Shown here piece after piece: positions 6,034 to 62,106 of a stretch of 64,000 bases of DNA; position 1 is the stretch's first letter, and every line of letters begins with the position of its first letter. A model generated the notes under the pieces. The model saw nothing but the letters and a program-made list of their open reading frames with translations. It ran no database searches and was not told the DNA's origin. The stretch comes from Escherichia coli (lineage in GTDB: Bacteria; Pseudomonadota; Gammaproteobacteria; Enterobacterales; Enterobacteriaceae): NCBI RefSeq assembly GCF_016903815.1, contig NZ_CP069973.1; one strand, given 5' to 3'. A program made the translations under genes and the position numbers.

Positions 6034-6492
6034 TTACTTACGGCCCGTAAACGGGCTGCCCGGATAGGGAATCGATAACTGCTCTCCCATTTTATCCTCT
6101 TCAAGCTGGTGCTTTATGTAATCCTGTATCTTCGCCGTGTTCTTACCCACCGTATCGACGTAGTACCCTCTGCACCAGAACTCCCTGTTCCTGTATTTGA
6201 ATTTCAAATCACCAAACTGCTCGTAAAGCATCAGACTGCTTTTCCCTTTCAGATATCCCATAAAGCCGGATACGCTCATTTTGGGCGGGATCTCCACAAG
6301 CATATGGATATGATCTGCACAGCATTCAGCTTCCAGAATCCGTACACTTTTCCACTCACACAGCTTTCTCAAAATACTGCCTATTGCTCTACGCTTCTCT
6401 CTGTAGAACACCTGTCTTCGGTATTTTGGCGCAAAAACTATGTGATATTTACAGTTCCATCGGGTGTGCGCTAAGCTCTTTTCGTTCCCCAT
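6034..6492 (-). CDS. tnpA: IS200-type transposase TnpA (Y1 HUH family, 152 aa)
   Basis: ORF track 6034..6543; start trimmed to ATG 6490-6492 (MGNEKSLAHTRWNCKYHIVFAPKYRR...); HUH motif HIHML and C-terminal YY; near-identical to recalled Salmonella IS200 TnpA. Confidence 0.9.
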   Translation of the reverse strand: MGNEKSLAHTRWNCKYHIVFAPKYRRQVFYREKRRAIGSILRKLCEWKSVRILEAECCADHIHMLVEIPPKMSVSGFMGYLKGKSSLMLYEQFGDLKFKYRNREFWCRGYYVDTVGKNTAKIQDYIKHQLEEDKMGEQLSIPYPGSPFTGRK

Positions 6493-8322: not shown

Positions 8323-8772
8323 TTATTCTTTTTCTTCATTAAAACAAGCGCGTAAACGTCGATTGGTCAGCAGCCAGATTAACGCCACAATATCCGCCAC
8401 TACCAGCGCCAGCCCGATACCGCTAACGGATTAACCGTTCAGCCACAGCCACGGTTGCCAGCAAAGTAAAACCACCTGCGCCAACAGCAACAGAAAATAG
8501 AGCACATGCCAGATACGGGGAAATGAAGCCCGCCGACCACTCAGCAAAAACGCCAGCACCGCCGGAATGCCGGGAATCAACCCCAGCCAGAAATTATCGT
8601 GATCGGGATAAAACAGATTTAGCAGTGCAGTACCCTGCTCGCGCGACGCACCGGCAATGACAAACAGCACCCAGGTTCGCGCCTGAAGCAATAGCACAAG
8701 CCAGAAGAGCAAGGGTAAACGCAGGCGACCGTGCGCATCATAATGGACAGGATGAAACTCAGTACTCTTCAT
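8323..8772 (-). pseudogene. yfeZ: Inner-membrane protein YfeZ interrupted by an in-frame TAA (stop at 8431-8433); 35 further sense codons continue in frame to a second stop at 8323-8325
   Basis: ORF track 8431..8778 (115 aa) ends ...CWQPWLWLNG*; the next in-frame codons read SVSGIGLALVVADIVALIWLLTNRRLRACFNEEKE*, which matches the recalled C-terminus of the ~149-aa K-12 protein (GAA to TAA at one position). Confidence 0.6.
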
Positions 8773-15725: not shown

Positions 15726-15736
15726 AAGTCGTTCCC

Positions 15737-17140
15737 TCAGGAAGGAAATGCGAGTGATTTCACCGTCACCGGCACAACCGATCCGCCAAAAAGAGGCGTA
15801 CCAATGTCGATATAGTCCCCCGCGCGGACAATCACTTCGTCAATGACTGCCAACGGGAGTTGTTGTAGCTGTGGGCGCAACAACATGCCCAGAGCTTTAC
15901 CAAAGTCCTGCCCGGCCACCACCAGCAGGGGATGCGGATTCGGAAAACGCGCGACGAAATCGACCAGCGCGTTGATGACCGTCAGTACCGCGGCGTAACG
16001 CACAGGCAGCGAGGCGGGAAGCGCCAGCACGTACGCGTCAGAATTGGGATCAAGATCCAGCTGAATCAGCGCCTGTTGCCAGGCACTCACCAGATCCGTT
16101 TCATCAATTGGGATCGCCACCGGCAAATTGCGCAGCGGCAGTTGTACGCCCTCCAGCCAGATTGTGCTGCCAGAGAGCGAAAGGGTATGTGCACCCGCGC
16201 CAATCACCGTGGCGCGTACGGTTTGCGCCGGAAACTGCACGTTCATCTCACGCAGGCGCGGATGGTCATGCAGCGCCGTTGCCAGAAGCGGGCCAATATC
16301 GGCAAAACAGAACGGGTCGGCGGGCTGGTGGCGATAACATTCGCCCACGCCGCCAGAAAGCGTAATGATTTCGGGCGTAACACCTGCGGGCAGCAAACCG
16401 GTTTGCATCAATGCCTGCGCGAGCGGCGAGAGCGTTCCGTCAATCACTTCGACAATCAGCTCTGCCATCCGCCGGGTAACCTGCACCAGCTGCGCGCCGG
16501 TCAGCGAACGGGCGTCGGTGCCTGCGCCGAAGCACTCATCCACAATCATCTGCCCCGGTTTATGAGCGTAAACCACGCGCCCCTGGCTGTCGGTTTCCAG
16601 CAGGCGACCACCGACGTTGAGGCAGGCAGTGCCGCTGATTTTTCCGGCATCGAACAGGGCGTAGTTCGCGGTGCCACCGCCGATGTCGATATTCAGTACC
16701 CGACACAGCCGTTGTTCAGAAAGGGTTTGCGCCCCGGCACCGTGACCGGCGATCACGGATTCGAGATGCGGCCCGGCGCTGGCGACGACAAAATCGCCCA
16801 GCGACTGGGAGAGCGTCATCACCGCCGGGCGAGCGTTGCGGGTTTTCGCGCTTTCACCGGTGATGATGATGGCACCAGAATCAACGCTTTCCGGCGCAAT
16901 GCCCGCAGCCTGATATTGCTCGAGGATTAAGGTTTTCAGTTCCGCTTCTTTTAAACCACCCTGTTTATCGACAGGGGTAAAGAACACCGGGCTTTGCCAG
17001 CTAATTTCGCGTTTGATGAATTCGTAGCGCGGCACCTGCGACACCGCCGCACGGTTAACCAGCTCCAGGTGGGAGAAGATCACCTGGGTGGTGGTGGTGC
17101 CGATATCGATACCGACGCTCAGTAGCTGGCGAGTGTTCAC
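15737..17140 (-). CDS. eutA: Ethanolamine ammonia-lyase reactivase EutA (467 aa)
   Basis: ORF track 15737..17140; GTG start overlapping eutH stop (GTGA). Confidence 0.93.
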   Translation of the reverse strand: MNTRQLLSVGIDIGTTTTQVIFSHLELVNRAAVSQVPRYEFIKREISWQSPVFFTPVDKQGGLKEAELKTLILEQYQAAGIAPESVDSGAIIITGESAKTRNARPAVMTLSQSLGDFVVASAGPHLESVIAGHGAGAQTLSEQRLCRVLNIDIGGGTANYALFDAGKISGTACLNVGGRLLETDSQGRVVYAHKPGQMIVDECFGAGTDARSLTGAQLVQVTRRMAELIVEVIDGTLSPLAQALMQTGLLPAGVTPEIITLSGGVGECYRHQPADPFCFADIGPLLATALHDHPRLREMNVQFPAQTVRATVIGAGAHTLSLSGSTIWLEGVQLPLRNLPVAIPIDETDLVSAWQQALIQLDLDPNSDAYVLALPASLPVRYAAVLTVINALVDFVARFPNPHPLLVVAGQDFGKALGMLLRPQLQQLPLAVIDEVIVRAGDYIDIGTPLFGGSVVPVTVKSLAFPS

Positions 17141-18533: not shown

Positions 18534-19720
18534 TATTGCGCCGCTGCGTACAGGCCGACAATCTGCTCCAGGCTGGCGGTACGCGGGTTGCTGCGCAGAC
18601 AAATATCTTCCAGCGCGGCCTGCGCCCATGCACCGTAATGCGCAGATGTCGCACCAATATCGCCCAGTCGTTTACCAATCCCGACTTCCGCAATCAGCTC
18701 ACTTACCGCGTTAATAGCGTCACGATCGTCGGATTTTTTAGTTCGCAGCGCCCGACCAATCTGACTAAAGCGTTCACGACAAACCATCCGGTTAAATTCC
18801 ATCACCGTTGGCAACAACATGGCGTTCGCCAGACCGTGCGGAATATGCAGCGCCGCCCCCGGCTGATGCGCCATCGCGTGGCATAACCCAAGCCCCGCAC
18901 TGGAAAACGCCATTCCCGCCATGCATGAAGCCAGCAACATGCTCTCGCGCGCGGCAAGGTCATGACCGTAGCCCACCGCTTTCGGCAGTGATTTACCAAT
19001 CATCGCGATTGCGCCAATCGCCAGACTGTCGGTAAACGGTGTGGCGTTCAGCGCGCTGTACGCTTCAATAGCATGGGTTAACGCGTCGATACCGGTCATC
19101 GCCGTGACATGCGACGGCACGCCTTCGGTCAGCGCAGCGTCGAGAATCGCCACATCCGGCATCAGCGAGGCGTGGGCTAACACCTGCTTGCGCCCGCTCA
19201 CCGCGTCGATAATCACCGTTACGTTGGTGGTTTCAGAACCGGTTCCGGCGGTCGTTGGAATGGCAATCAACGGCAGGCGCGGTTGCAGAACGCTGGTTTC
19301 TGACATTTCTGCCAGCGTGCTATCCGGGTTTGTCACCAGCAACGCCACGGCTTTCGCCGCATCCAGCACCGAGCCGCCGCCAAACGCGATCACCCCGTCA
19401 CAACCTGATTCACGCAACTGCGCCACGGCTGCACACACGTCGGTGATGCACGGTTCGCCCACCGGACATGGCCAGAGCGTCATGGCGATACCTTTAACGG
19501 CCAGGCTACGCGTCAGCCCGGCGGTCATCCCCGCCTGATGCAAAAAGCTGTCTGCCATCACGAACAGATGTTTCAGCCCACGCGTTTGCGCTTGCTGCCC
19601 GCAACTGCTCATCGCGCCCGGACCGCAAAGCGTCACCGGTGGAACGCTAAATGTTTTTACCCGTTGCAGATTCAGGGTATCGAACGCCTGAAAGAGCGCG
19701 GTCTGCAATTCATTTTGCAT
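18533..19720 (-). CDS. eutG: Iron-containing alcohol dehydrogenase EutG (395 aa)
   Basis: ORF track 18533..19720. Confidence 0.93.
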   Translation of the reverse strand: MQNELQTALFQAFDTLNLQRVKTFSVPPVTLCGPGAMSSCGQQAQTRGLKHLFVMADSFLHQAGMTAGLTRSLAVKGIAMTLWPCPVGEPCITDVCAAVAQLRESGCDGVIAFGGGSVLDAAKAVALLVTNPDSTLAEMSETSVLQPRLPLIAIPTTAGTGSETTNVTVIIDAVSGRKQVLAHASLMPDVAILDAALTEGVPSHVTAMTGIDALTHAIEAYSALNATPFTDSLAIGAIAMIGKSLPKAVGYGHDLAARESMLLASCMAGMAFSSAGLGLCHAMAHQPGAALHIPHGLANAMLLPTVMEFNRMVCRERFSQIGRALRTKKSDDRDAINAVSELIAEVGIGKRLGDIGATSAHYGAWAQAALEDICLRSNPRTASLEQIVGLYAAAQ

Positions 19721-24514: not shown

Positions 24515-25212
24515 AGGGATTGCCAGTTAGCCGGCCAGGCGACATACAGGAATTTCACGCTGGATGTCGTACCAAATTCGATGCTGGAGCCTTTCGGGAT
24601 AAACATTACGTCGCCTGCTTTGGCGATCATGGTTTCGCCTTCGTGGCGAACATGCAGCTCCCCTTCCAGCACCATGTCGATTTCGTCGTAGTTCAGGGTC
24701 CACGGGAAGAATGCGTTCTCCCACTGCATAAAACCGGCGGCCATGCTGCTGCCGTCGTCTCCGGTCACAAGATCAGTCAAGCCCACGCAATGCGGCTCTG
24801 CGCCGTCGAAACGACCAAACTTGACGCTGCTGCCATCAATAACTTTGATGCCGCCTTTGCCGGTCACCGATTTGAAACTCGGCTGCATTGCACCCTGCTC
24901 CAGTGACTGTTTTTCCTTCATCACTTTTTCCATCAGCTGCGCGACCAGGCTTTCGGTAAACTGGCCTTCCGGTAGCTGGGCGATGATGGTTTCGCGGATA
25001 CGCTGGCTTTCGGTTTTATCGGCTGGCACGCAGGCGGGAACGGACGCCGTTACCGGGGTCGATTCATCACATTCAGTGATGGTAAAACCCAGTAGATCTG
25101 CCACTTCACGGGCTTCCGGGGTAATAATGCTGGCGCGCAGAACCACGGACATTGCCTGTTCGCCGCGCGCGTGTGCTTCACGAATATCATTCGCTGTGAT
25201 GAGTTTTTTCAC
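24511..25212 (-). CDS. eutQ: Cupin-fold protein EutQ (233 aa)
   Basis: ORF track 24511..25212. Confidence 0.92.
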   Translation of the reverse strand: MKKLITANDIREAHARGEQAMSVVLRASIITPEAREVADLLGFTITECDESTPVTASVPACVPADKTESQRIRETIIAQLPEGQFTESLVAQLMEKVMKEKQSLEQGAMQPSFKSVTGKGGIKVIDGSSVKFGRFDGAEPHCVGLTDLVTGDDGSSMAAGFMQWENAFFPWTLNYDEIDMVLEGELHVRHEGETMIAKAGDVMFIPKGSSIEFGTTSSVKFLYVAWPANWQSL

Positions 25213-35742: not shown

Positions 35743-35947
35743 AACGACCTTCTTTTTTGGTTGTAAAAACCTTATGCTTTATATGAGTGTTGTTATTACC
35801 CGACTTACAGGGGAATCGGCAATGTTCATGTGCCCAGAATAAGTAACTATTTCGCTATAAACTGTGGCAGATCAAATAATCCCATCACTGACTAAATTGC
35901 GTTTCAGCGAACTGGAACATTAATGATTTTTTGTGGAGAAGACGCGT

Positions 35948-37648
35948 GTGATTGTTAAACGACCCGTCTCGGCCAGTCTGGCCCGGGCCTTTTTTTACAT
36001 TGTGCTGCTGTCGATTCTTTCCACGGGTATCGCTCTGCTAACGCTGGCGAGCAGTTTACGCGACGCTGAGGCTATCAATATTGCCGGATCGCTGCGTATG
36101 CAGAGTTACCGCCTGGGCTACGACTTGCAAAGTGGCAGTCCACAACTCAATGCACATCGCCAGTTGTTTCAGCAGGCACTGCATTCACCGGTATTAACCA
36201 ATCTCAACGTCTGGTATGTGCCAGAGGCAGTAAAAACCCGCTACGCGCATCTGAATGCCAACTGGCTGGAGATGAATAATCGGCTCAGCAAGGGCGACTT
36301 GCCGTGGTATCAGGCCAATATTAATAATTATGTTAATCAAATAGACCTGTTCGTGCTGGCTTTACAGCACTACGCTGAACGCAAAATGCTGCTGGTGGTG
36401 GCGATTTCCCTGGCTGGCGGCATCGGTATTTTCACGCTGGTCTTTTTTACTTTGCGCCGCATACGCCATCAGGTGGTTGCCCCGCTGAATCAGCTGGTTA
36501 CCGCCAGTCAGCGTATTGAACACGGACAGTTCGACTCGCCGCCGCTGGATACCAGCCTGCCGAATGAGCTTGGCCTGCTTGCCAAAACCTTTAACCAGAT
36601 GTCGAGCGAGCTACATAAATTGTACCGTTCGCTGGAGGCGTCAGTAGAAGAAAAGACCCGCGACCTCCACGAGGCCAAGCGTCGCCTGGAGGTGTTGTAT
36701 CAGTGTTCGCAGGCGCTGAACACCAGCCAGATTGATGTGCATTGTTTCCGCCATATTTTGCAGATTGTGCGCGACAACGAAGCGGCTGAATATCTGGAGT
36801 TAAATGTCGGTGAAAACTGGCGGATTAGCGAAGGGCAACCAAACCCGGAATTGCCGATGCAGATTTTACCAGTGACAATGCAAGAGACGGTTTACGGCGA
36901 ACTGCACTGGCAAAATAGTCACGTTTCATCATCAGAACCGCTGCTTAACAGCGTTTCGTCGATGCTGGGACGCGGTTTGTACTTTAATCAGGCGCAGAAG
37001 CATTTTCAGCAGTTATTGTTGATGGAAGAACGTGCGACCATCGCCCGCGAATTGCACGACTCGCTGGCTCAGGTACTTTCTTACTTACGTATCCAGTTGA
37101 CGTTACTGAAGCGTTCGATACCGGAAGATAACGCCACCGCACAAAGTATCATGGCCGATTTTTCCCAGGCGTTGAATGATGCTTATCGGCAGTTACGCGA
37201 GCTGTTGACTACTTTCCGCCTGACGCTGCAGCAGGCAGATCTCCCCTCCGCGTTGAGGGAAATGCTGGATACGTTACAAAATCAAACCAGCGCTAAACTG
37301 ACCCTCGACTGCCGCCTGCCAACCCTGGCGCTGGATGCGCAAATGCAGGTGCATTTGTTGCAAATTATTCGCGAAGCGGTGCTGAATGCGATGAAGCACG
37401 CCAACGCCAGCGAAATCGCCGTTAGCTGCGTCACCGCGCCGGATGGCAATCACACGGTCTATATTCGCGACAACGGGATTGGCATCGGTGAACCGAAAGA
37501 ACCCGAAGGCCATTATGGTCTGAATATCATGCGCGAACGCGCGGAAAGATTGGGTGGGACGCTGACTTTTTCGCAACCTTCCGGCGGCGGCACGTTAGTG
37601 AGTATTAGCTTTCGCTCTGCGGAGGGTGAGGAAAGTCAGCTGATGTAA
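35948..37648 (+). CDS. narQ: Nitrate/nitrite sensor histidine kinase NarQ (566 aa)
   Basis: ORF track 35933..37648; GTG at 35948 gives MIVKRPVSAS...; HAMP and HisKA_3/HATPase region. Confidence 0.9.
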   Translation: MIVKRPVSASLARAFFYIVLLSILSTGIALLTLASSLRDAEAINIAGSLRMQSYRLGYDLQSGSPQLNAHRQLFQQALHSPVLTNLNVWYVPEAVKTRYAHLNANWLEMNNRLSKGDLPWYQANINNYVNQIDLFVLALQHYAERKMLLVVAISLAGGIGIFTLVFFTLRRIRHQVVAPLNQLVTASQRIEHGQFDSPPLDTSLPNELGLLAKTFNQMSSELHKLYRSLEASVEEKTRDLHEAKRRLEVLYQCSQALNTSQIDVHCFRHILQIVRDNEAAEYLELNVGENWRISEGQPNPELPMQILPVTMQETVYGELHWQNSHVSSSEPLLNSVSSMLGRGLYFNQAQKHFQQLLLMEERATIARELHDSLAQVLSYLRIQLTLLKRSIPEDNATAQSIMADFSQALNDAYRQLRELLTTFRLTLQQADLPSALREMLDTLQNQTSAKLTLDCRLPTLALDAQMQVHLLQIIREAVLNAMKHANASEIAVSCVTAPDGNHTVYIRDNGIGIGEPKEPEGHYGLNIMRERAERLGGTLTFSQPSGGGTLVSISFRSAEGEESQLM

Positions 37649-49948: not shown

Positions 49949-50093
49949 GGGCCATCCTCTGTGCAAACAAGTGTCTCAATGGTACGTTTGGTATGGCATT
50001 AAAAGCAAGCAGACAGAACCGTTCTGATTGTTGTATGCATGTTTTTTTTATGCTTTCCTTAAGAACAACTCACCCCTTAAAGGAATAACCAGT

Positions 50094-50666
50094 TTGACAC
50101 TGTCATCGCAACATTATCTGGTGATCACTGCGTTGGGTGCCGATCGCCCTGGAATTGTGAACACCATCACCCGTCATGTCAGTAGTTGCGGCTGTAATAT
50201 TGAAGACAGTCGCCTGGCGATGCTGGGAGAAGAGTTCACGTTTATCATGCTGCTTTCCGGTTCATGGAATGCCATTACTCTGATTGAATCAACGTTACCG
50301 TTGAAAGGTGCAGAACTGGATCTTTTAATCGTGATGAAGCGCACGACGGCGCGTCCGCGTCCGCCAATGCCAGCATCTGTCTGGGTTCAGGTCGATGTGG
50401 CAGACTCCCCGCATTTAATTGAACGCTTCACAGCACTTTTCGACGCGCATCATATGAACATTGCGGAGCTGGTGTCACGCACGCAACCTGCTGAAAATGA
50501 ACGGGCTGCGCAGTTGCATATTCAGATAACCGCCCACAGCCCCGCATCTGCGGACGCAGCAAATATTGAGCAAGCGTTCAAAGCCCTATGTACAGAACTC
50601 AATGCACAAGGCAGTATTAACGTCGTCAATTATTCCCAACATGATGAACAGGATGGAGTTAAGTAA
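50094..50666 (+). CDS. gcvR: Glycine cleavage system transcriptional repressor GcvR (ACT domains, 190 aa), probable TTG start
   Basis: ORF track 50028..50666; TTG at 50094 preceded by AAGGA SD gives (M)TLSSQHYLVITALGADRPG... Confidence 0.85.
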   Translation: MTLSSQHYLVITALGADRPGIVNTITRHVSSCGCNIEDSRLAMLGEEFTFIMLLSGSWNAITLIESTLPLKGAELDLLIVMKRTTARPRPPMPASVWVQVDVADSPHLIERFTALFDAHHMNIAELVSRTQPAENERAAQLHIQITAHSPASADAANIEQAFKALCTELNAQGSINVVNYSQHDEQDGVK

Positions 50667-56449: not shown

Positions 56450-57100
56450 ATGACCGGTTCTATGATCGTAAATAATCTGGCGGGACTGATGATGCTGACA
56501 TCGCTGTTTGTGATTAGCGTCAAAAGCTATCGCCTGTCATGCGGATTTTACGCCTGCCAGTCGCTGGTGCTGGTGTCTATTTTCGCCACTCTCTCGTGCC
56601 TGTTCGCCGCAGAGCAACTGCTGATCTGGTCCGCCAGCGCCTTTATCACCAAAGTGCTGCTGGTACCGTTAATCATGACTTACGCTGCACGAAATATTCC
56701 CCAGAACATCCCGGAAAAAGCGTTATTCGGTCCGGCAATGATGACACTGCTCGCGGCGTTAATTGTCCTGCTTTGCGCATTTGTCGTTCAGCCCGTGAAG
56801 CTACCGATGGCTACCGGGCTGAAACCGGCGCTGGCGGTGGCGTTAGGTCATTTTCTGCTTGGCCTGCTGTGCATTGTCAGCCAGCGCAATATCCTGCGGC
56901 AAATTTTTGGTTACTGCCTGATGGAAAACGGCTCCCATCTGGTGCTGGCGCTTCTAGCCTGGCGTGCACCGGAACTGGTGGAAATTGGTATCGCTACCGA
57001 CGCCATCTTCGCCGTCATTGTGATGGTGTTACTGGCAAGAAAAATATGGCGTACCCACGGCACGCTGGACGTGAATAACTTGACCGCGCTGAAGGGATAA
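56450..57100 (+). CDS. hyfE: Hydrogenase-4 membrane subunit HyfE (216 aa)
   Basis: ORF track 56450..57100. Confidence 0.92.
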
Positions 57101-57104
57101 TGAG

Positions 57105-58685
57105 ATGAGTTATTCTGTGATGTTCGCTTTACTCCTGCTCACGCCGCTGCTTTTTTCGCTGCTCTGTTTTGCCTGTCGGAAACGGGGGCACTCTGCGACT
57201 CTCGCGGTGACAGTATTACATAGCTTAGGGATCACACTGCTACTGATTCTGGCACTGTGGGTGGTCCAAACTGCCGCTGATGCGGGAGAAATATTCGCTG
57301 CGGGACTGTGGCTTCATATTGATGGTCTGGGCGGTTTGTTCCTCGCCATTCTTGGTGTGATTGGCTTTCTCACCGGTGTTTACTCGATTGGCTACATGCG
57401 TCATGAAGTGGCACACGGCGAGCTTTCACCCGTTACGCTGTGCGATTACTACGGTTTCTTCCATCTGTTTTTGTTCACCATGCTGCTGGTTGTCACCAGC
57501 AATAACCTTATTGTGATGTGGGCGGCGATCGAAGCCACCACCTTAAGCTCGGCGTTTCTGGTAGGCATTTACGGTCAGCGTTCATCGCTGGAAGCTGCAT
57601 GGAAGTACATCATTATTTGTACTGTTGGTGTCGCTTTTGGTCTGTTCGGTACCGTGCTGGTATACGCCAACGCCGCCAGCGTTATGCCGCAGGCAGAAAT
57701 GGCGATATTCTGGAGCGAGGTTCTTAAGCAATCGTCCTTGCTTGACCCAACATTAATGCTGTTGGCCTTTGTGTTCGTGCTAATTGGCTTTGGCACTAAA
57801 ACCGGGCTATTCCCCATGCACGCCTGGCTGCCAGATGCTCACAGTGAAGCGCCGAGTCCGGTCAGCGCCCTGCTCTCCGCCGTATTGCTGAACTGCGCGC
57901 TGTTGGTGCTGATTCGCTATTACATCATTATTTGCCAGGCCATCGGCAGCGATTTCCCCAACCGGTTGTTGCTCATCTTCGGCATGTTGTCGGTTGCCGT
58001 GGCGGCATTTTTCATTCTGGTACAGCGGGACATTAAGCGTCTGCTGGCGTACTCCAGCGTGGAGAACATGGGACTGGTCGCGGTGGCGCTAGGCATTGGC
58101 GGGCCGCTGGGAATTTTTGCCGCGCTGCTGCACACCTTAAACCACAGTCTGGCAAAAACGCTGTTGTTCTGCGGTTCCGGCAATGTACTGCTCAAGTACG
58201 GCACGCGCGATCTCAACGTCGTCTGCGGAATGCTTAAAATCATGCCATTTACCGCCGTGTTGTTTGGCGGCGGTGCGCTGGCGCTGGCCGGGATGCCGCC
58301 CTTCAACATTTTTCTTAGCGAATTTATGACCGTTACCGCCGGACTGGCGCGTAATCATCTGCTGCTTATCGTCCTGCTGTTATTGCTGTTAACGCTGGTG
58401 CTGGCGGGCCTGGTACGGATGGCTGCGCGGGTGTTAATGGCGAAACCGCCGCAGGCCGTTAACCGGGGTGAACTTGGCTGGTTGACCACCTCGCCAATGG
58501 TGATTCTGCTGGTCATGATGCTGGCGATGGGAACGCATATTCCACAACCTGTCATCAGGATCCTGGCGGGCGCTTCCACTATAGTCCTCTCAGGGACGCA
58601 CGACCTGCCTGCACAACGTAGCACCTGGCATGATTTTTTGCCTTCAGGCACCGCATCTGTTTCGGAGAAACACAGTGAACGTTAA
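57105..58685 (+). CDS. hyfF: Hydrogenase-4 membrane subunit HyfF (526 aa, antiporter-type)
   Basis: ORF track 57105..58685. Confidence 0.92.
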
Positions 58686-60390
58686 TTCATCGTCAAATCG
58701 TGGCGAAGCGATTCTCGCCGCCCTGAAAACGCAGTTCCCCGGCGCGGTGCTGGATGAAGAGCGACAAACGCCTGAACAGGTCACCATTACGGTGAAAATC
58801 AATCTGCTGCCTGACGTTGTGCATTATCTTTATTATCAACATGATGGCTGGCTTCCAGTCCTGTTTGGCAACGACGAGCGGACACTTAACGGTCATTACG
58901 CGGTTTATTATGCCCTTTCTATGGAAGGGGCCGAAAAATGCTGGATCGTGGTGAAGGCACTGGTCGATGCCGACAGTCGGGAGTTTCCGTCAGTCACACC
59001 GCGCGTCCCTGCCGCGGTCTGGGGCGAGCGAGAAATTCGCGATATGTACGGGCTGATTCCGGTTGGCCTGCCGGATCAGCGTCGGCTGGTGTTGCCCGAT
59101 GACTGGCCGGAAGATATGCATCCGCTGCGCAAAGACGCGATGGATTATCGACTGCGCCCAGAACCGACGACTGATACCGAAACGTATCCGTTTATCAACG
59201 AGGGCAACAGCGATGCGCGGGTTATCCCTGTCGGCCCGCTGCATATCACCTCCGATGAACCAGGTCACTTCCGCTTGTTTGTGGATGGCGAGCAAATTGT
59301 CGATGCTGATTACCGCCTGTTTTATGTCCATCGCGGCATGGAGAAACTGGCAGAAACGCGGATGGGCTACAACGAAGTGACCTTCTTATCCGACCGCGTG
59401 TGTGGGATTTGCGGTTTTGCCCACAGTGTGGCCTATACCAACTCGGTTGAAAATGCACTGGGGATTGAGGTGCCGCAACGAGCGCATACTATTCGCTCGA
59501 TTCTGCTGGAAGTCGAACGGCTGCATAGTCATTTGCTCAACCTTGGCCTCTCCTGCCATTTTGTTGGATTTGATACCGGCTTTATGCAATTTTTCCGCGT
59601 GCGGGAAAAGTCGATGACGATGGCGGAATTGCTGACCGGGTCGCGTAAAACCTACGGTCTGAATCTGATTGGTGGTGTTCGCCGCGATATTCTCAAAGAG
59701 CAACGTCTGCAAACGCTGAAACTGGTGCGCGAGATGCGCGCCGACGTGTCGGAGCTGGTAGAGATGCTGCTTGCCACGCCGAATATGGAACAACGCACTC
59801 AGGGCATTGGCATTCTCGACCGACAAATCGCCCGTGATTATAGCCCTGTCGGGCCGCTGATCCGCGGCAGTGGTTTTGCCCGTGATTTGCGCTTTGATCA
59901 CCCCTACGCCGACTACGGCAATATTCCCAAAACGCTGTTTACCTTTACCGGCGGCGATGTCTTCTCCCGCGTGATGGTCCGTGTCAAAGAGACGTTTGAT
60001 TCGCTGGCAATGCTGGAATTTGCCCTCGACAACATGCCGGATACCCCACTGCTGACCGAAGGCTTTAGCTATAAACCTCACGCATTCGCGCTGGGCTTTG
60101 TTGAAGCGCCACGTGGTGAAGACGTGCACTGGAGCATGCTCGGTGATAACCAAAAATTGTTCCGCTGGCGCTGTCGTGCCGCCACCTACGCCAACTGGCC
60201 AGTGCTGCGTTACATGCTGCGCGGCAATACCGTTTCTGACGCACCGCTGATTATCGGTAGCCTTGATCCCTGCTACTCCTGTACCGACCGTGTGACGCTG
60301 GTTGATGTGCGCAAGCGCCAGTCAAAAACCGTGCCGTATAAAGAGATCGAACGCTACGGCATTGATCGTAACCGTTCGCCGCTGAAGTAA
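58675..60390 (+). CDS. hyfG: Hydrogenase-4 [NiFe] large catalytic subunit HyfG; start assigned to GTG 58675 (start uncertain)
   Basis: ORF track 58630..60390; GTG at 58675 preceded by GGAGA SD gives (M)[13 protein letters not shown]...; C-terminal DPCYSCTDR metal-binding motif; overlaps hyfF by 11 nt. Confidence 0.85.
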
Positions 60391-60399
60391 GGACAGAAG

Positions 60400-60945
60400 A
60401 TGCTGAAGTTACTGAAAACTATTATGCGCGCCGGAACCGCGACGGTGAAATATCCCTTCGCGCCACTGGAGGTCAGCCCAGGCTTTCGCGGGAAACCGGA
60501 CCTGATGCCCAGCCAATGTATTGCCTGCGGTGCCTGCGCTTGTGCTTGTCCGGCAAATGCGCTGACTATCCAGACCGACGACCAGCAAAATACGCGCACC
60601 TGGCAGCTCTATCTGGGGCGTTGTATTTACTGCGGACGTTGTGAAGAAGTGTGCCCGACCAGAGCCATTCAGCTTACCAATAACTTTGAACTGACCGTCA
60701 CCAATAAAGCCGATCTCTATACCCGCGCGACGTTCCATCTACAACGTTGCAGCCGTTGCGAACGCCCGTTTGCCCCGCAAAAAACCGTCGCACTGGCTGC
60801 TGAATTGTTGGCACAGCAACAAAATGCGCCACAAAACCGCGAAATGTTATGGGCGCAAGCGAGCGTCTGCCCGGAGTGCAAACAACGCGCGACGCTGATC
60901 AACGACGACACAGATGAACCGCTGGTGGCTAAGGAGCAGCTATGA
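60400..60945 (+). CDS. hyfH: Hydrogenase-4 ferredoxin-type subunit HyfH (181 aa)
   Basis: ORF track 60400..60945; two CxxCxxCxxxCP motifs. Confidence 0.92.
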
Positions 60946-61700
60946 GTCCAGTGCTTACGCAACATGTCAGCCAGCCCATAACGCTGGACGAGCAAACGCA
61001 AAAGATAAAGCAGCATTTGCTACAGGATATCCGTCGCTCGGCTTACGTTTATCGCGTCGATTGCGGCGGCTGCAACGCCTGCGAAATCGAAATTTTTGCC
61101 GCCATCACACCCGTATTCGACGCAGAACGTTTTGGCATTAAGGTTGTTTCATCACCACGTCACGCCGATATTTTGTTATTTACTGGCGCAGTCACCCGAG
61201 CGATGCGTATGCCTGCACTTCGGGCATATGAGTCTGCCCCCGATCATAAAATCTGTGTTTCCTACGGCGCGTGTGGTGTCGGCGGCGGTATTTTCCACGA
61301 TCTCTACAGCGTCTGGGGCGGCAGCGACACCATTGTCCCCATTGATGTTTGGATCCCCGGCTGCCCGCCAACACCGGCCGCCACCATTCACGGTTTCGCC
61401 GTGGCGCTCGGTTTGCTGCAACAGAAGATTCACGCGGTGGATTATCGCGATCCCACCGGGGTGACCATGCAACCGCTGTGGCCGCAGATCCCGCCATCAC
61501 AGCGTATCGCCGTTGAGCGAGAAGCGCGGCGGCTGGCGGGCTATCGTCAGGGGCGAGAAATTTGCGATCGGCTCCTGCGCCATTTAAGCGACGATCCTAC
61601 AGGAAATCGGGTTAACACCTGGTTGCGCGAAGCTGACGATCCGCGTCTCAATAGTATCGTTCAGCAACTCTTTCGCATTCTCCGGGGGTTACATGGCTGA
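60942..61700 (+). CDS. hyfI: Hydrogenase-4 [NiFe] small subunit HyfI (252 aa, NuoB-like)
   Basis: ORF track 60942..61700. Confidence 0.92.
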
Positions 61701-62106
61701 GGAGTGCAGGGAAATTGTTTTCTGGACGCTGCGAAAAAAGTTTGTCGCCAGTAGCGACGAGATGCCGGAACACAGCTCTCAGGTAATGTATTACTCGCTG
61801 GCTATCGGTCATCACGTTGGCGTGATTGATTGCCTGAGTGTCGCCTTCCGCTGCCCACTGACGGAATACGAAGATTGGCTTGCACAGGTCGAAGAGGAGC
61901 AAGCCCGACGTAAGATGCTGGGGGTGATGACCTTTGGTGAGATTGTTATTGACGCCAGCCACACCGCCCTGTTGACCCGGGCATTCGCGCCACTGGCAGA
62001 TGACGCGATGTCGGCGTGGCAGGCGCGTAGCATTCAATTCATTCATCTGTTGGATGAAATTGTGCAGGAACCGGCCATCTATCTGATGGCCAGAAAAATT
62101 GCGTGA
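61693..62106 (+). CDS. hyfJ: Hydrogenase-4 component HyfJ (137 aa, HycH-like maturation factor)
   Basis: ORF track 61693..62106. Confidence 0.9.

Follow-up and report, generated by a model that had tools for sequence, protein, structure and literature searches.

The window, that is, the whole stretch of DNA that was analysed, comprises 64,000 bases of Escherichia coli sequence. Of 5,426 complete genomes of E. coli, 4,294 contain a match to a 4-kb stretch around the hyfG start, and the match in strain 7/2 (NZ_CP023820.1) is 100% identical. Over its entire length the window differs from that strain at only two positions, 8433 and 61886, so that the PGAP annotation of NZ_CP023820.1 can be read directly in window coordinates. 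According to this annotation, the gene content runs from cysP through the eut operon and narQ to gcvR-bcp-hyfABCDEFGHIJR, and all the reading frames from hyfA to hyfJ are intact in the window. The translation start sites with which this work is mainly concerned are the following:

58675..58677, plus strand: GTG initiation codon of hyfG, annotated in strain 7/2 and in K-12
58664..58668, plus strand: Shine-Dalgarno (SD) sequence GGAGA of hyfG, inside the last codons of hyfF (GGAG at 58664-58667, 7 nt upstream of the GTG)
58675..58685, plus strand: 11-nt overlap of hyfF and hyfG, GTGAACGTTAA, with the hyfF stop codon TAA at 58683-58685
58630..58632, plus strand: rejected in-frame ATG, which would lengthen HyfG by 15 residues
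58675..60390, plus strand: hyfG coding sequence, 571 aa, large subunit of a group 4a [NiFe]-hydrogenase
50094..50096, plus strand: TTG initiation codon of gcvR, as annotated, with the SD sequence AAGGA at 50080-50084
35946..35951, plus strand: GTGTGA site of narQ, with the annotated GTG at 35948-35950 and the SD sequence GGAG at 35935-35938
17137..17140, minus strand: GTGA formed by the eutA start GTG (17140-17138) and the eutH stop TGA (17139-17137), with the SD sequence GGAGG at 17152-17148
25187..25212, minus strand: GTG start of eutQ (25212-25210) and its 26-nt overlap with eutP, the fifth non-ATG start

An earlier note on this DNA had placed the starts of hyfG, gcvR, narQ and eutA at GTG 58675, TTG 50094, GTG 35948 and GTG 17140, respectively. 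Each of these coordinates is correct in the sequence, and the identical codons are annotated as starts both in PGAP for strain 7/2 and in the curated genome of K-12 MG1655. The GTG of eutQ at 25212 was absent from that list.

The strength of the SD sequences was assessed by pairing the 3' end of 16S rRNA with the 18-20 nt that precede each candidate start. At the five non-ATG starts the predicted energies range from -5.6 to -10.3 kcal/mol, and all five sites fit the canonical SD-led arrangement of ATG, GTG or TTG preceded, 5-9 nt upstream, by complementarity to the anti-SD sequence. Within the window, a value of -5.5 kcal/mol is reached by 77% of the annotated starts vs 9.8% of 1,445 internal in-frame ATG, GTG and TTG codons, while the other in-frame start codons located upstream of the five non-ATG starts or up to 30 codons past them score -3.3 kcal/mol or weaker. 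The SD support of these starts thus exceeds the expectation by chance, and the view that the four originally listed genes possess good ribosome-binding sites is borne out by the pairing energies.

Non-ATG starts are not enriched in this region. Genome-wide, roughly 17% of the genes of E. coli K-12 begin with a codon other than ATG; in the window this is the case for 5 of 60 complete genes (8%), a fraction that does not exceed the average for E. coli, and we therefore rejected the idea of an enrichment. Overlaps between genes on the same strand are likewise common: eleven pairs overlap by 1-26 nt, and in most of them the downstream start has its SD sequence within the upstream gene. The combination of a same-strand overlap with a downstream SD sequence inside the upstream reading frame is found at hyfF/hyfG (11 nt), eutH/eutA (4 nt) and eutP/eutQ (26 nt); a second 11-nt overlap in the window is that of eutJ and eutG.

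Reading frames extended to the first start codon after the nearest in-frame stop are a poor guide to the true starts in this region. Under this rule, 24 of the 60 genes possess an upstream in-frame start-like codon, so that a track of longest open reading frames mis-extends about 40% of the genes, which calls for caution in the automated reading of such tracks. The extensions amount to 15 codons in hyfG, 22 in gcvR, 5 in narQ, 13 in hyfA and 7 in hyfC. The suspicion that the track over-extends these genes is consequently justified for hyfG, gcvR and narQ, and for the window at large, but not for eutA, which no rule of this kind can lengthen, because its frame is closed by a TAA 8 codons ahead of the GTG, with no start codon between the two. 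We consider it very probable that the annotated starts are the true initiation codons and that the longer frames are artefacts of the first-start-after-stop rule.

For hyfG, the GTG is in frame with the ORF that ends at 60390, and the only rival is the ATG at 58630, as no further start codon occurs before the conserved part of the protein. If translation started at this ATG, HyfG would comprise 586 aa, hyfF and hyfG would overlap by 56 nt, and the GTG call would be a habit of annotation. This ATG is a codon of the preferred type, in frame with hyfG and separated from it by no stop, and all 18 E. coli alleles that were sampled retain it. However, it lacks an SD sequence (-1.5 kcal/mol, vs -6.6 kcal/mol at the GTG), and its invariance within the species is explained by its position in the coding sequence of hyfF. 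As the GTG is also kept in all 18 alleles, 17 of which are identical throughout the junction and one of which has a single-base difference, only the comparison between species can discriminate between the two codons.

A scan with HyfF, with one genome per species, yielded eight loci, of which seven include the hyfF-hyfG junction (four species of Citrobacter, Klebsiella indica, Phytobacter ursingii and Brenneria); these were aligned with the window and K-12. Across the resulting nine junctions from eight species, the only invariant blocks are GGAGA and GTGA, separated by 6 or 7 nt. Citrobacter and K. indica have GTG, AAG or ACG at the position of the E. coli ATG, and in Phytobacter and Brenneria this position does not align. 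In four of the species (K. indica, Citrobacter NCU1, Phytobacter and Brenneria) the frame is closed by a stop 9-15 codons upstream and no start codon intervenes, so that the GTG is the earliest start available; Brenneria has an additional ATG directly after it. The overlap between the two genes is 4, 11 or 23 nt long, depending on the species. On the evidence of these alignments, the conserved element of the junction is the SD-GTG unit and not the length of the overlap, which varies and hence is itself unlikely to matter.

The comparison of protein sequences leads to the same preference. Residues 5-571 of HyfG align with residues 2-569 of HycE, with 72% identity and one gap of a single residue, which makes the N-terminus encoded from the GTG three residues longer than that of HycE. 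Among solved structures, chain E of 7z0s (HycE; E=2e-292) is matched by the ATG-extended version of HyfG only from residue 22 on, and the 15 additional residues thus have no counterpart in HycE; neither do they have one in other HyfG proteins. The alignment with HycE and HyfG homologues, proposed earlier as a check on the start, sides with the GTG. A search of NCBIfam for an equivalog of HyfG or HycE found none, and only models of the NuoD type were matched, below their cut-offs. Taken together, these data make an exclusive use of the ATG exceedingly unlikely, and we regard the GTG start of hyfG as well supported. The earlier note had ranked it as the least certain of its assignments; this ranking does not hold, as the GTG is the only start conserved across the eight species.

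The same evidence bears on a scenario in which both codons are used, the ATG giving rise, in E. coli only, to a minor long proteoform of HyfG beside the main product of the GTG. The frame is open and nothing in the sequence forbids such a protein, and in-frame alternative starts are known from E. coli in general. Against this stand the absence of an SD sequence at the ATG, the lack of conservation of this codon beyond E. coli, and its location in a translated region, where it would be occluded by the ribosomes elongating along hyfF. Nor does mRNA structure distinguish the site: the predicted folding around the hyfG start is no better than that of shuffled sequences (z = -0.34). Accordingly, dual initiation seems to us very improbable. 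One candidate structural element in this region, a 6-bp hairpin in which 58658-58663 pair with 58667-58672 and the GGA is placed in the loop, was rejected as not significant, specific to E. coli and unconserved.

The GUG start of hyfG was already pointed out by Finney et al. in 2019 (PMC7384014). No N-terminal or initiation-site data for HyfG, GcvR, NarQ or EutA were found in the available parts of the TRAINSPOTTER and INRI-seq supplements, and the INRI-seq supplements have no entry for any of the five genes with non-ATG starts. The hyf operon is reported to be barely expressed in laboratory E. coli, which accounts for the missing protein evidence on the N-terminus of HyfG. A correct N-terminus nevertheless matters for any attempt to tag or express Hyd-4's large subunit.

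Alternative upstream codons were also considered for the neighbouring genes, namely TTG 50028 or 50031 for gcvR and GTG 35933 for narQ, all of which are in frame and downstream of the nearest stop. Their pairing energies (about 0 for the TTGs of gcvR and no better than -3.3 kcal/mol overall) compare poorly with -5.6 kcal/mol at the annotated start of gcvR and -6.4 kcal/mol at that of narQ. Moreover, the family profiles and homologues of both proteins begin at the annotated codons. Position 1 of the GcvR profile (NF008612) corresponds to residue 23 of the extension from TTG 50028, i.e. it falls on TTG 50094, and Met1 of the Vibrio cholerae homologue of GcvR (1u8s) aligns two residues downstream of this TTG. 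Position 1 of the NarQ profile (NF008184) corresponds to residue 6 of the extension from GTG 35933, i.e. it falls on 35948, and the constructs used for crystals of NarQ (5iji and others) have the annotated start residue as their first. The GTG at 35933 overlaps the SD sequence of the annotated start of narQ, and the stretch upstream of gcvR is T-rich and leader-like in appearance. The use of an upstream codon by either gene is therefore a very remote prospect. We favour the annotated codons and propose that gcvR would initiate at its UUG, for which our search found no mention in the literature, and that narQ would initiate at the 3' GUG of its GUGUGA site.

The narQ site has a peculiarity that went unnoticed in the earlier note, namely an out-of-frame GTG (35946-48) followed by TGA (35949-51), which overlap the annotated GTG. 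This arrangement has been studied with luciferase reporters, which revealed that the two GUGs compete and that initiation depends on the A at position +4 via a start-stop mechanism of termination and reinitiation (PMC9841429, NAR 2022). The documented ambiguity of a start in this set belongs to narQ and is already published; if any of the starts is to be called uncertain, it is this one. The predicted mRNA folding at the narQ start does not exceed that of shuffled sequences (z = +0.40).

In the eut operon, the GTG of eutA overlaps the stop codon of eutH as GTGA, exactly as had been described, and no possible start precedes it in its ORF. The EutA profile (NF007991) aligns with the protein from 1-467 to 1-467, and eutA would thus initiate at the GUG of the GUGA start/stop overlap. 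The eutQ gene has the strongest SD sequence of the five (AGGAGG, -10.3 kcal/mol), its profile (NF012001) aligns from 1-233 to 1-233, and the TRAINSPOTTER supplement includes its GTG among the database translation initiation sites; initiation is predicted at this GUG, 26 nt inside eutP. It must be noted that previous start calls have in part been passed on to annotation, NCBIfam profiles and crystal constructs, and therefore their agreement is not fully independent support. The four GTG and TTG starts and the short overlaps are real and ordinary features, in line with the reference annotation and published work, and they were already known. The reference calls for hyfG, gcvR, narQ, eutA and eutQ are confirmed as sound, and little else changes.

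The anatomy of the hyfF-hyfG junction, however ordinary, suggests how the synthesis of HyfG might be controlled. The 11-nt overlap claimed for the two genes is indeed present, extending from the GTG at 58675 to the end of the TAA at 58685; the final codons of hyfF contain the SD sequence of hyfG, whose GTG begins 8 nt ahead of the hyfF stop. From this anatomy and from the conservation of the hyfG start we infer that the synthesis of HyfG is most likely coupled to the translation of hyfF, the upstream gene for a membrane subunit, and is throttled by the start codon. A ribosome completing hyfF would open the initiation site of hyfG and could re-initiate there; alternatively, a fresh 30S subunit could bind to the exposed SD sequence. 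The weaker GUG codon would moderate the output of HyfG, and the two effects together would tie this output to the upstream membrane subunit. In Pectobacterium atrosepticum, deletion of hyfDEF or hyfBCDEF raises the level of HyfG (PMC7384014), and by analogy this effect may lend indirect support to the coupling of hyfF and hyfG. The GTGA of eutH/eutA and the overlap of eutP/eutQ are junctions of the same kind.

A separate observation concerns the interior of the gene. The hyfG of the window is intact and encodes 571 aa, while the K-12 allele, with the same start and stop, encodes 555 aa. The difference is due to a single segment:

59840..59887, plus strand: 48-bp segment of hyfG (codons 389-404), absent in K-12-type alleles

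The segment is bounded by a 10-bp direct repeat, GCCCGTGATT, at 59830-59839 and 59878-59887. It is present in 2,179 of 4,294 hyfG-positive complete genomes, and nearly all the others have the K-12-type gap, which is also found in BL21 and in an O111:H8 strain. The segment encodes a near-invariant motif, VGPxxRxSG (HyfG 392-400), and in the region as a whole G393, R397, S399, G400 and D404 are nearly invariant. It is retained in HycE, in the MBH of Pyrococcus furiosus, in seven HyfG proteins from other species, and in 119 of 119 representatives of the family (from clusters at 50% identity) that span the region. As the segment is kept throughout the family, the short allele must be regarded as derived, a core motif having been lost from it by deletion. 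On this comparative evidence, the 571-aa hyfG is the ancestral form and the 555-aa allele is the product of an in-frame 48-bp deletion between the 10-bp direct repeats.

Among the alleles examined, nine short ones differ from each other by 0-14 nt and nine long ones by 3-36 nt, and the tight clustering of the former fits a mainly single origin of the deletion. The numbers of segregating synonymous and nonsynonymous sites (13/9 in the deletion alleles, 55/15 in the intact ones; Fisher p = 0.095) are suggestive of a relaxed constraint on the deletion alleles, without reaching significance. Of the strains sampled, 6 of 8 with the deletion and 3 of 8 with the intact allele have hyfF, hyfH or hyfI flagged as pseudogenes; with K-12 and the window added, the figures are 6 of 9 vs 3 of 9 (p = 0.35), again suggestive but short of significance. 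Evidently, the hyf operon is decaying in many lineages regardless of the 48-bp deletion.

The deletion deserves attention in view of the fact that Hyd-4 activity has not been reconstituted in K-12. With 15 K-12 strains, built with hyfG::hycE tail swaps and strong promoters, Finney et al. (2020; PMC7654741) found no Hyd-4 activity; their conclusion was that the K-12 enzyme still faces "additional, unknown, biosynthetic problems". The tail swaps were made with nucleotides 1-1569 of hyfG (PMC7654741), which correspond to the short allele. We saw no reference to the deletion in that paper or in the passages searched of the 2019 papers on P. atrosepticum and Trabulsiella, of the 2020 commentary and of two papers in J Bacteriol from 2025-2026. 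The deletion may bear on the unreconstituted activity of Hyd-4 in K-12, a suggestion we put forward as a lead rather than as a result. It is tempting to go further and to suppose that the deletion, rather than a silent promoter or a missing protease, suffices for the failure of Hyd-4/FHL-2 in K-12, that it has gone unremarked, and that strains whose hyf operon is fully intact, such as that of the window, could make an active enzyme; this stronger version we consider possible but rather doubtful. Nonetheless, the deletion is a concrete candidate for the biosynthetic problems that block K-12 Hyd-4, it could matter more than the starts discussed above, and the observation also identifies natural strains with an intact hyf operon.

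With respect to known systems, the junction between hyfF and hyfG has the same overlap anatomy as the coupled stop/start junctions of bacterial operons (ATGA, GTGA and longer variants). In K-12 MG1655 the hyfG junction (b2487) is identical to that of the window with respect to the GTG, the SD sequence and the 11-nt overlap with hyfF. Likewise, the narQ site shows the same arrangement, GGAG-N7/9-GTGTGA, as the one characterized in PMC9841429, with no difference. HyfG is closely similar to HycE, the large subunit in hydrogenase 3 (FHL-1), and the similarity extends over the full length of the protein, in accordance with the assignment to group 4a: HyfG shares with HycE the NuoC-like N-terminal domain, which is required for the assembly of FHL (PMC7050243), both motifs with the cysteine pairs that ligate nickel (CGICGFAH and DPCYSCTDR), and a 32-residue C-terminal tail, i.e. 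the assembly peptide that follows the Arg. For hycE the annotated start is a methionine codon, ATG (PMC7050243), and in K-12 hycD and hycE are separated by a gap of 17 nt with no overlap, unlike hyfF and hyfG.

The large subunit gene of hydrogenase 4 (Hyd-4), hyfG, occurs in E. coli as a long allele of 571 aa, carried by the window, and a short allele of 555 aa, carried by K-12. The 48 bp by which they differ, and the repeats that bound them, are located in the window as follows.

59840-59887: 48-bp segment of hyfG, codons 389-404, present in the window allele
59830-59839 and 59878-59887: 10-bp direct repeats bounding the 48-bp segment

The segment is missing from K-12, from BL21 and from roughly half of the complete E. 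coli genomes that carry hyf (4,294 in all). The allele of the K-12 type arose by deletion, in frame, between the two 10-bp direct repeats. With it HyfG loses the VGPxxRxSG motif, which is retained in the hydrogenase 3 large subunit HycE, in P. furiosus MBH, in seven HyfG proteins from other species and in all 119 family representatives (119/119). In the papers examined on the unexplained inactivity of Hyd-4 in K-12, no mention of the 48-bp hyfG deletion was found.

Lesions were also flagged by PGAP in the genes adjoining hyfG (hyfF, hyfH and hyfI; loci L014-L028 of other E. coli strains): a frameshift in hyfI and/or an internal stop or frameshift in hyfF was annotated in 9 of the 16 strains sampled, comprising six of the eight that have the short hyfG allele and three of the eight that have the long allele. 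On this evidence many E. coli lineages appear to have a decaying hyf operon. The region from hyfF to hyfI (57000-61000) is without any match in 1,132 of the 5,426 complete E. coli genomes; in the window, every gene from hyfA to hyfJ is intact.

The near-identical strain 7/2 (NZ_CP023820.1) differs from the window at only two positions in 64 kb, one in yfeZ and one in hyfJ. Base 8433 is A in the window and C in strain 7/2, so that yfeZ codon 114 (8431-8433, minus strand) reads as a premature TAA in the former and as GAA in the latter, and at base 61886 (hyfJ codon 65) residue 65 of HyfJ is Gln in the window and Leu in strain 7/2. An IS200C-family transposase gene lies between pbp4b and yfeX (6034-6492, minus strand).

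Compared with its counterparts in Citrobacter, Klebsiella indica and Phytobacter, E. coli hyfG is shorter by 12 nt (four codons) just behind the start codon (window 58678-58690 compared with loci L004-L010, the hyfF-hyfG junctions of other enterobacterial species). The hyfF-hyfG overlap amounts to 4, 11 or 23 nt depending on the species, because of this indel together with the variable position of the hyfF stop codon.

Translation starts and junctions elsewhere in the window include the following.

35946-35951: narQ start within GTGTGA, an out-of-frame GTG followed immediately by TGA, overlapping the annotated GTG
25187-25212, minus strand: overlap of eutQ with eutP by 26 nt; eutQ starts at GTG 25212, with a strong AGGAGG upstream
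19710-19720, minus strand: eutJ/eutG overlap of 11 nt, ATGCAAAATGA
15726-15736: eutB-eutA intergenic region, the eut operon being unbroken

The narQ GTGTGA has been characterised with reporters as an ambiguous start-stop site (PMC9841429). The earlier note had listed non-ATG starts for hyfG, gcvR, narQ and eutA; the GTG of eutQ, which it omitted, is the fifth in the window. The eutJ/eutG overlap matches that of hyfF/hyfG in its length of 11 nt, but its start codon is ATG. Finally, in K-12 the 6.8-kb cryptic prophage CPZ-55 is inserted between eutB and eutA, whereas the window is without it.
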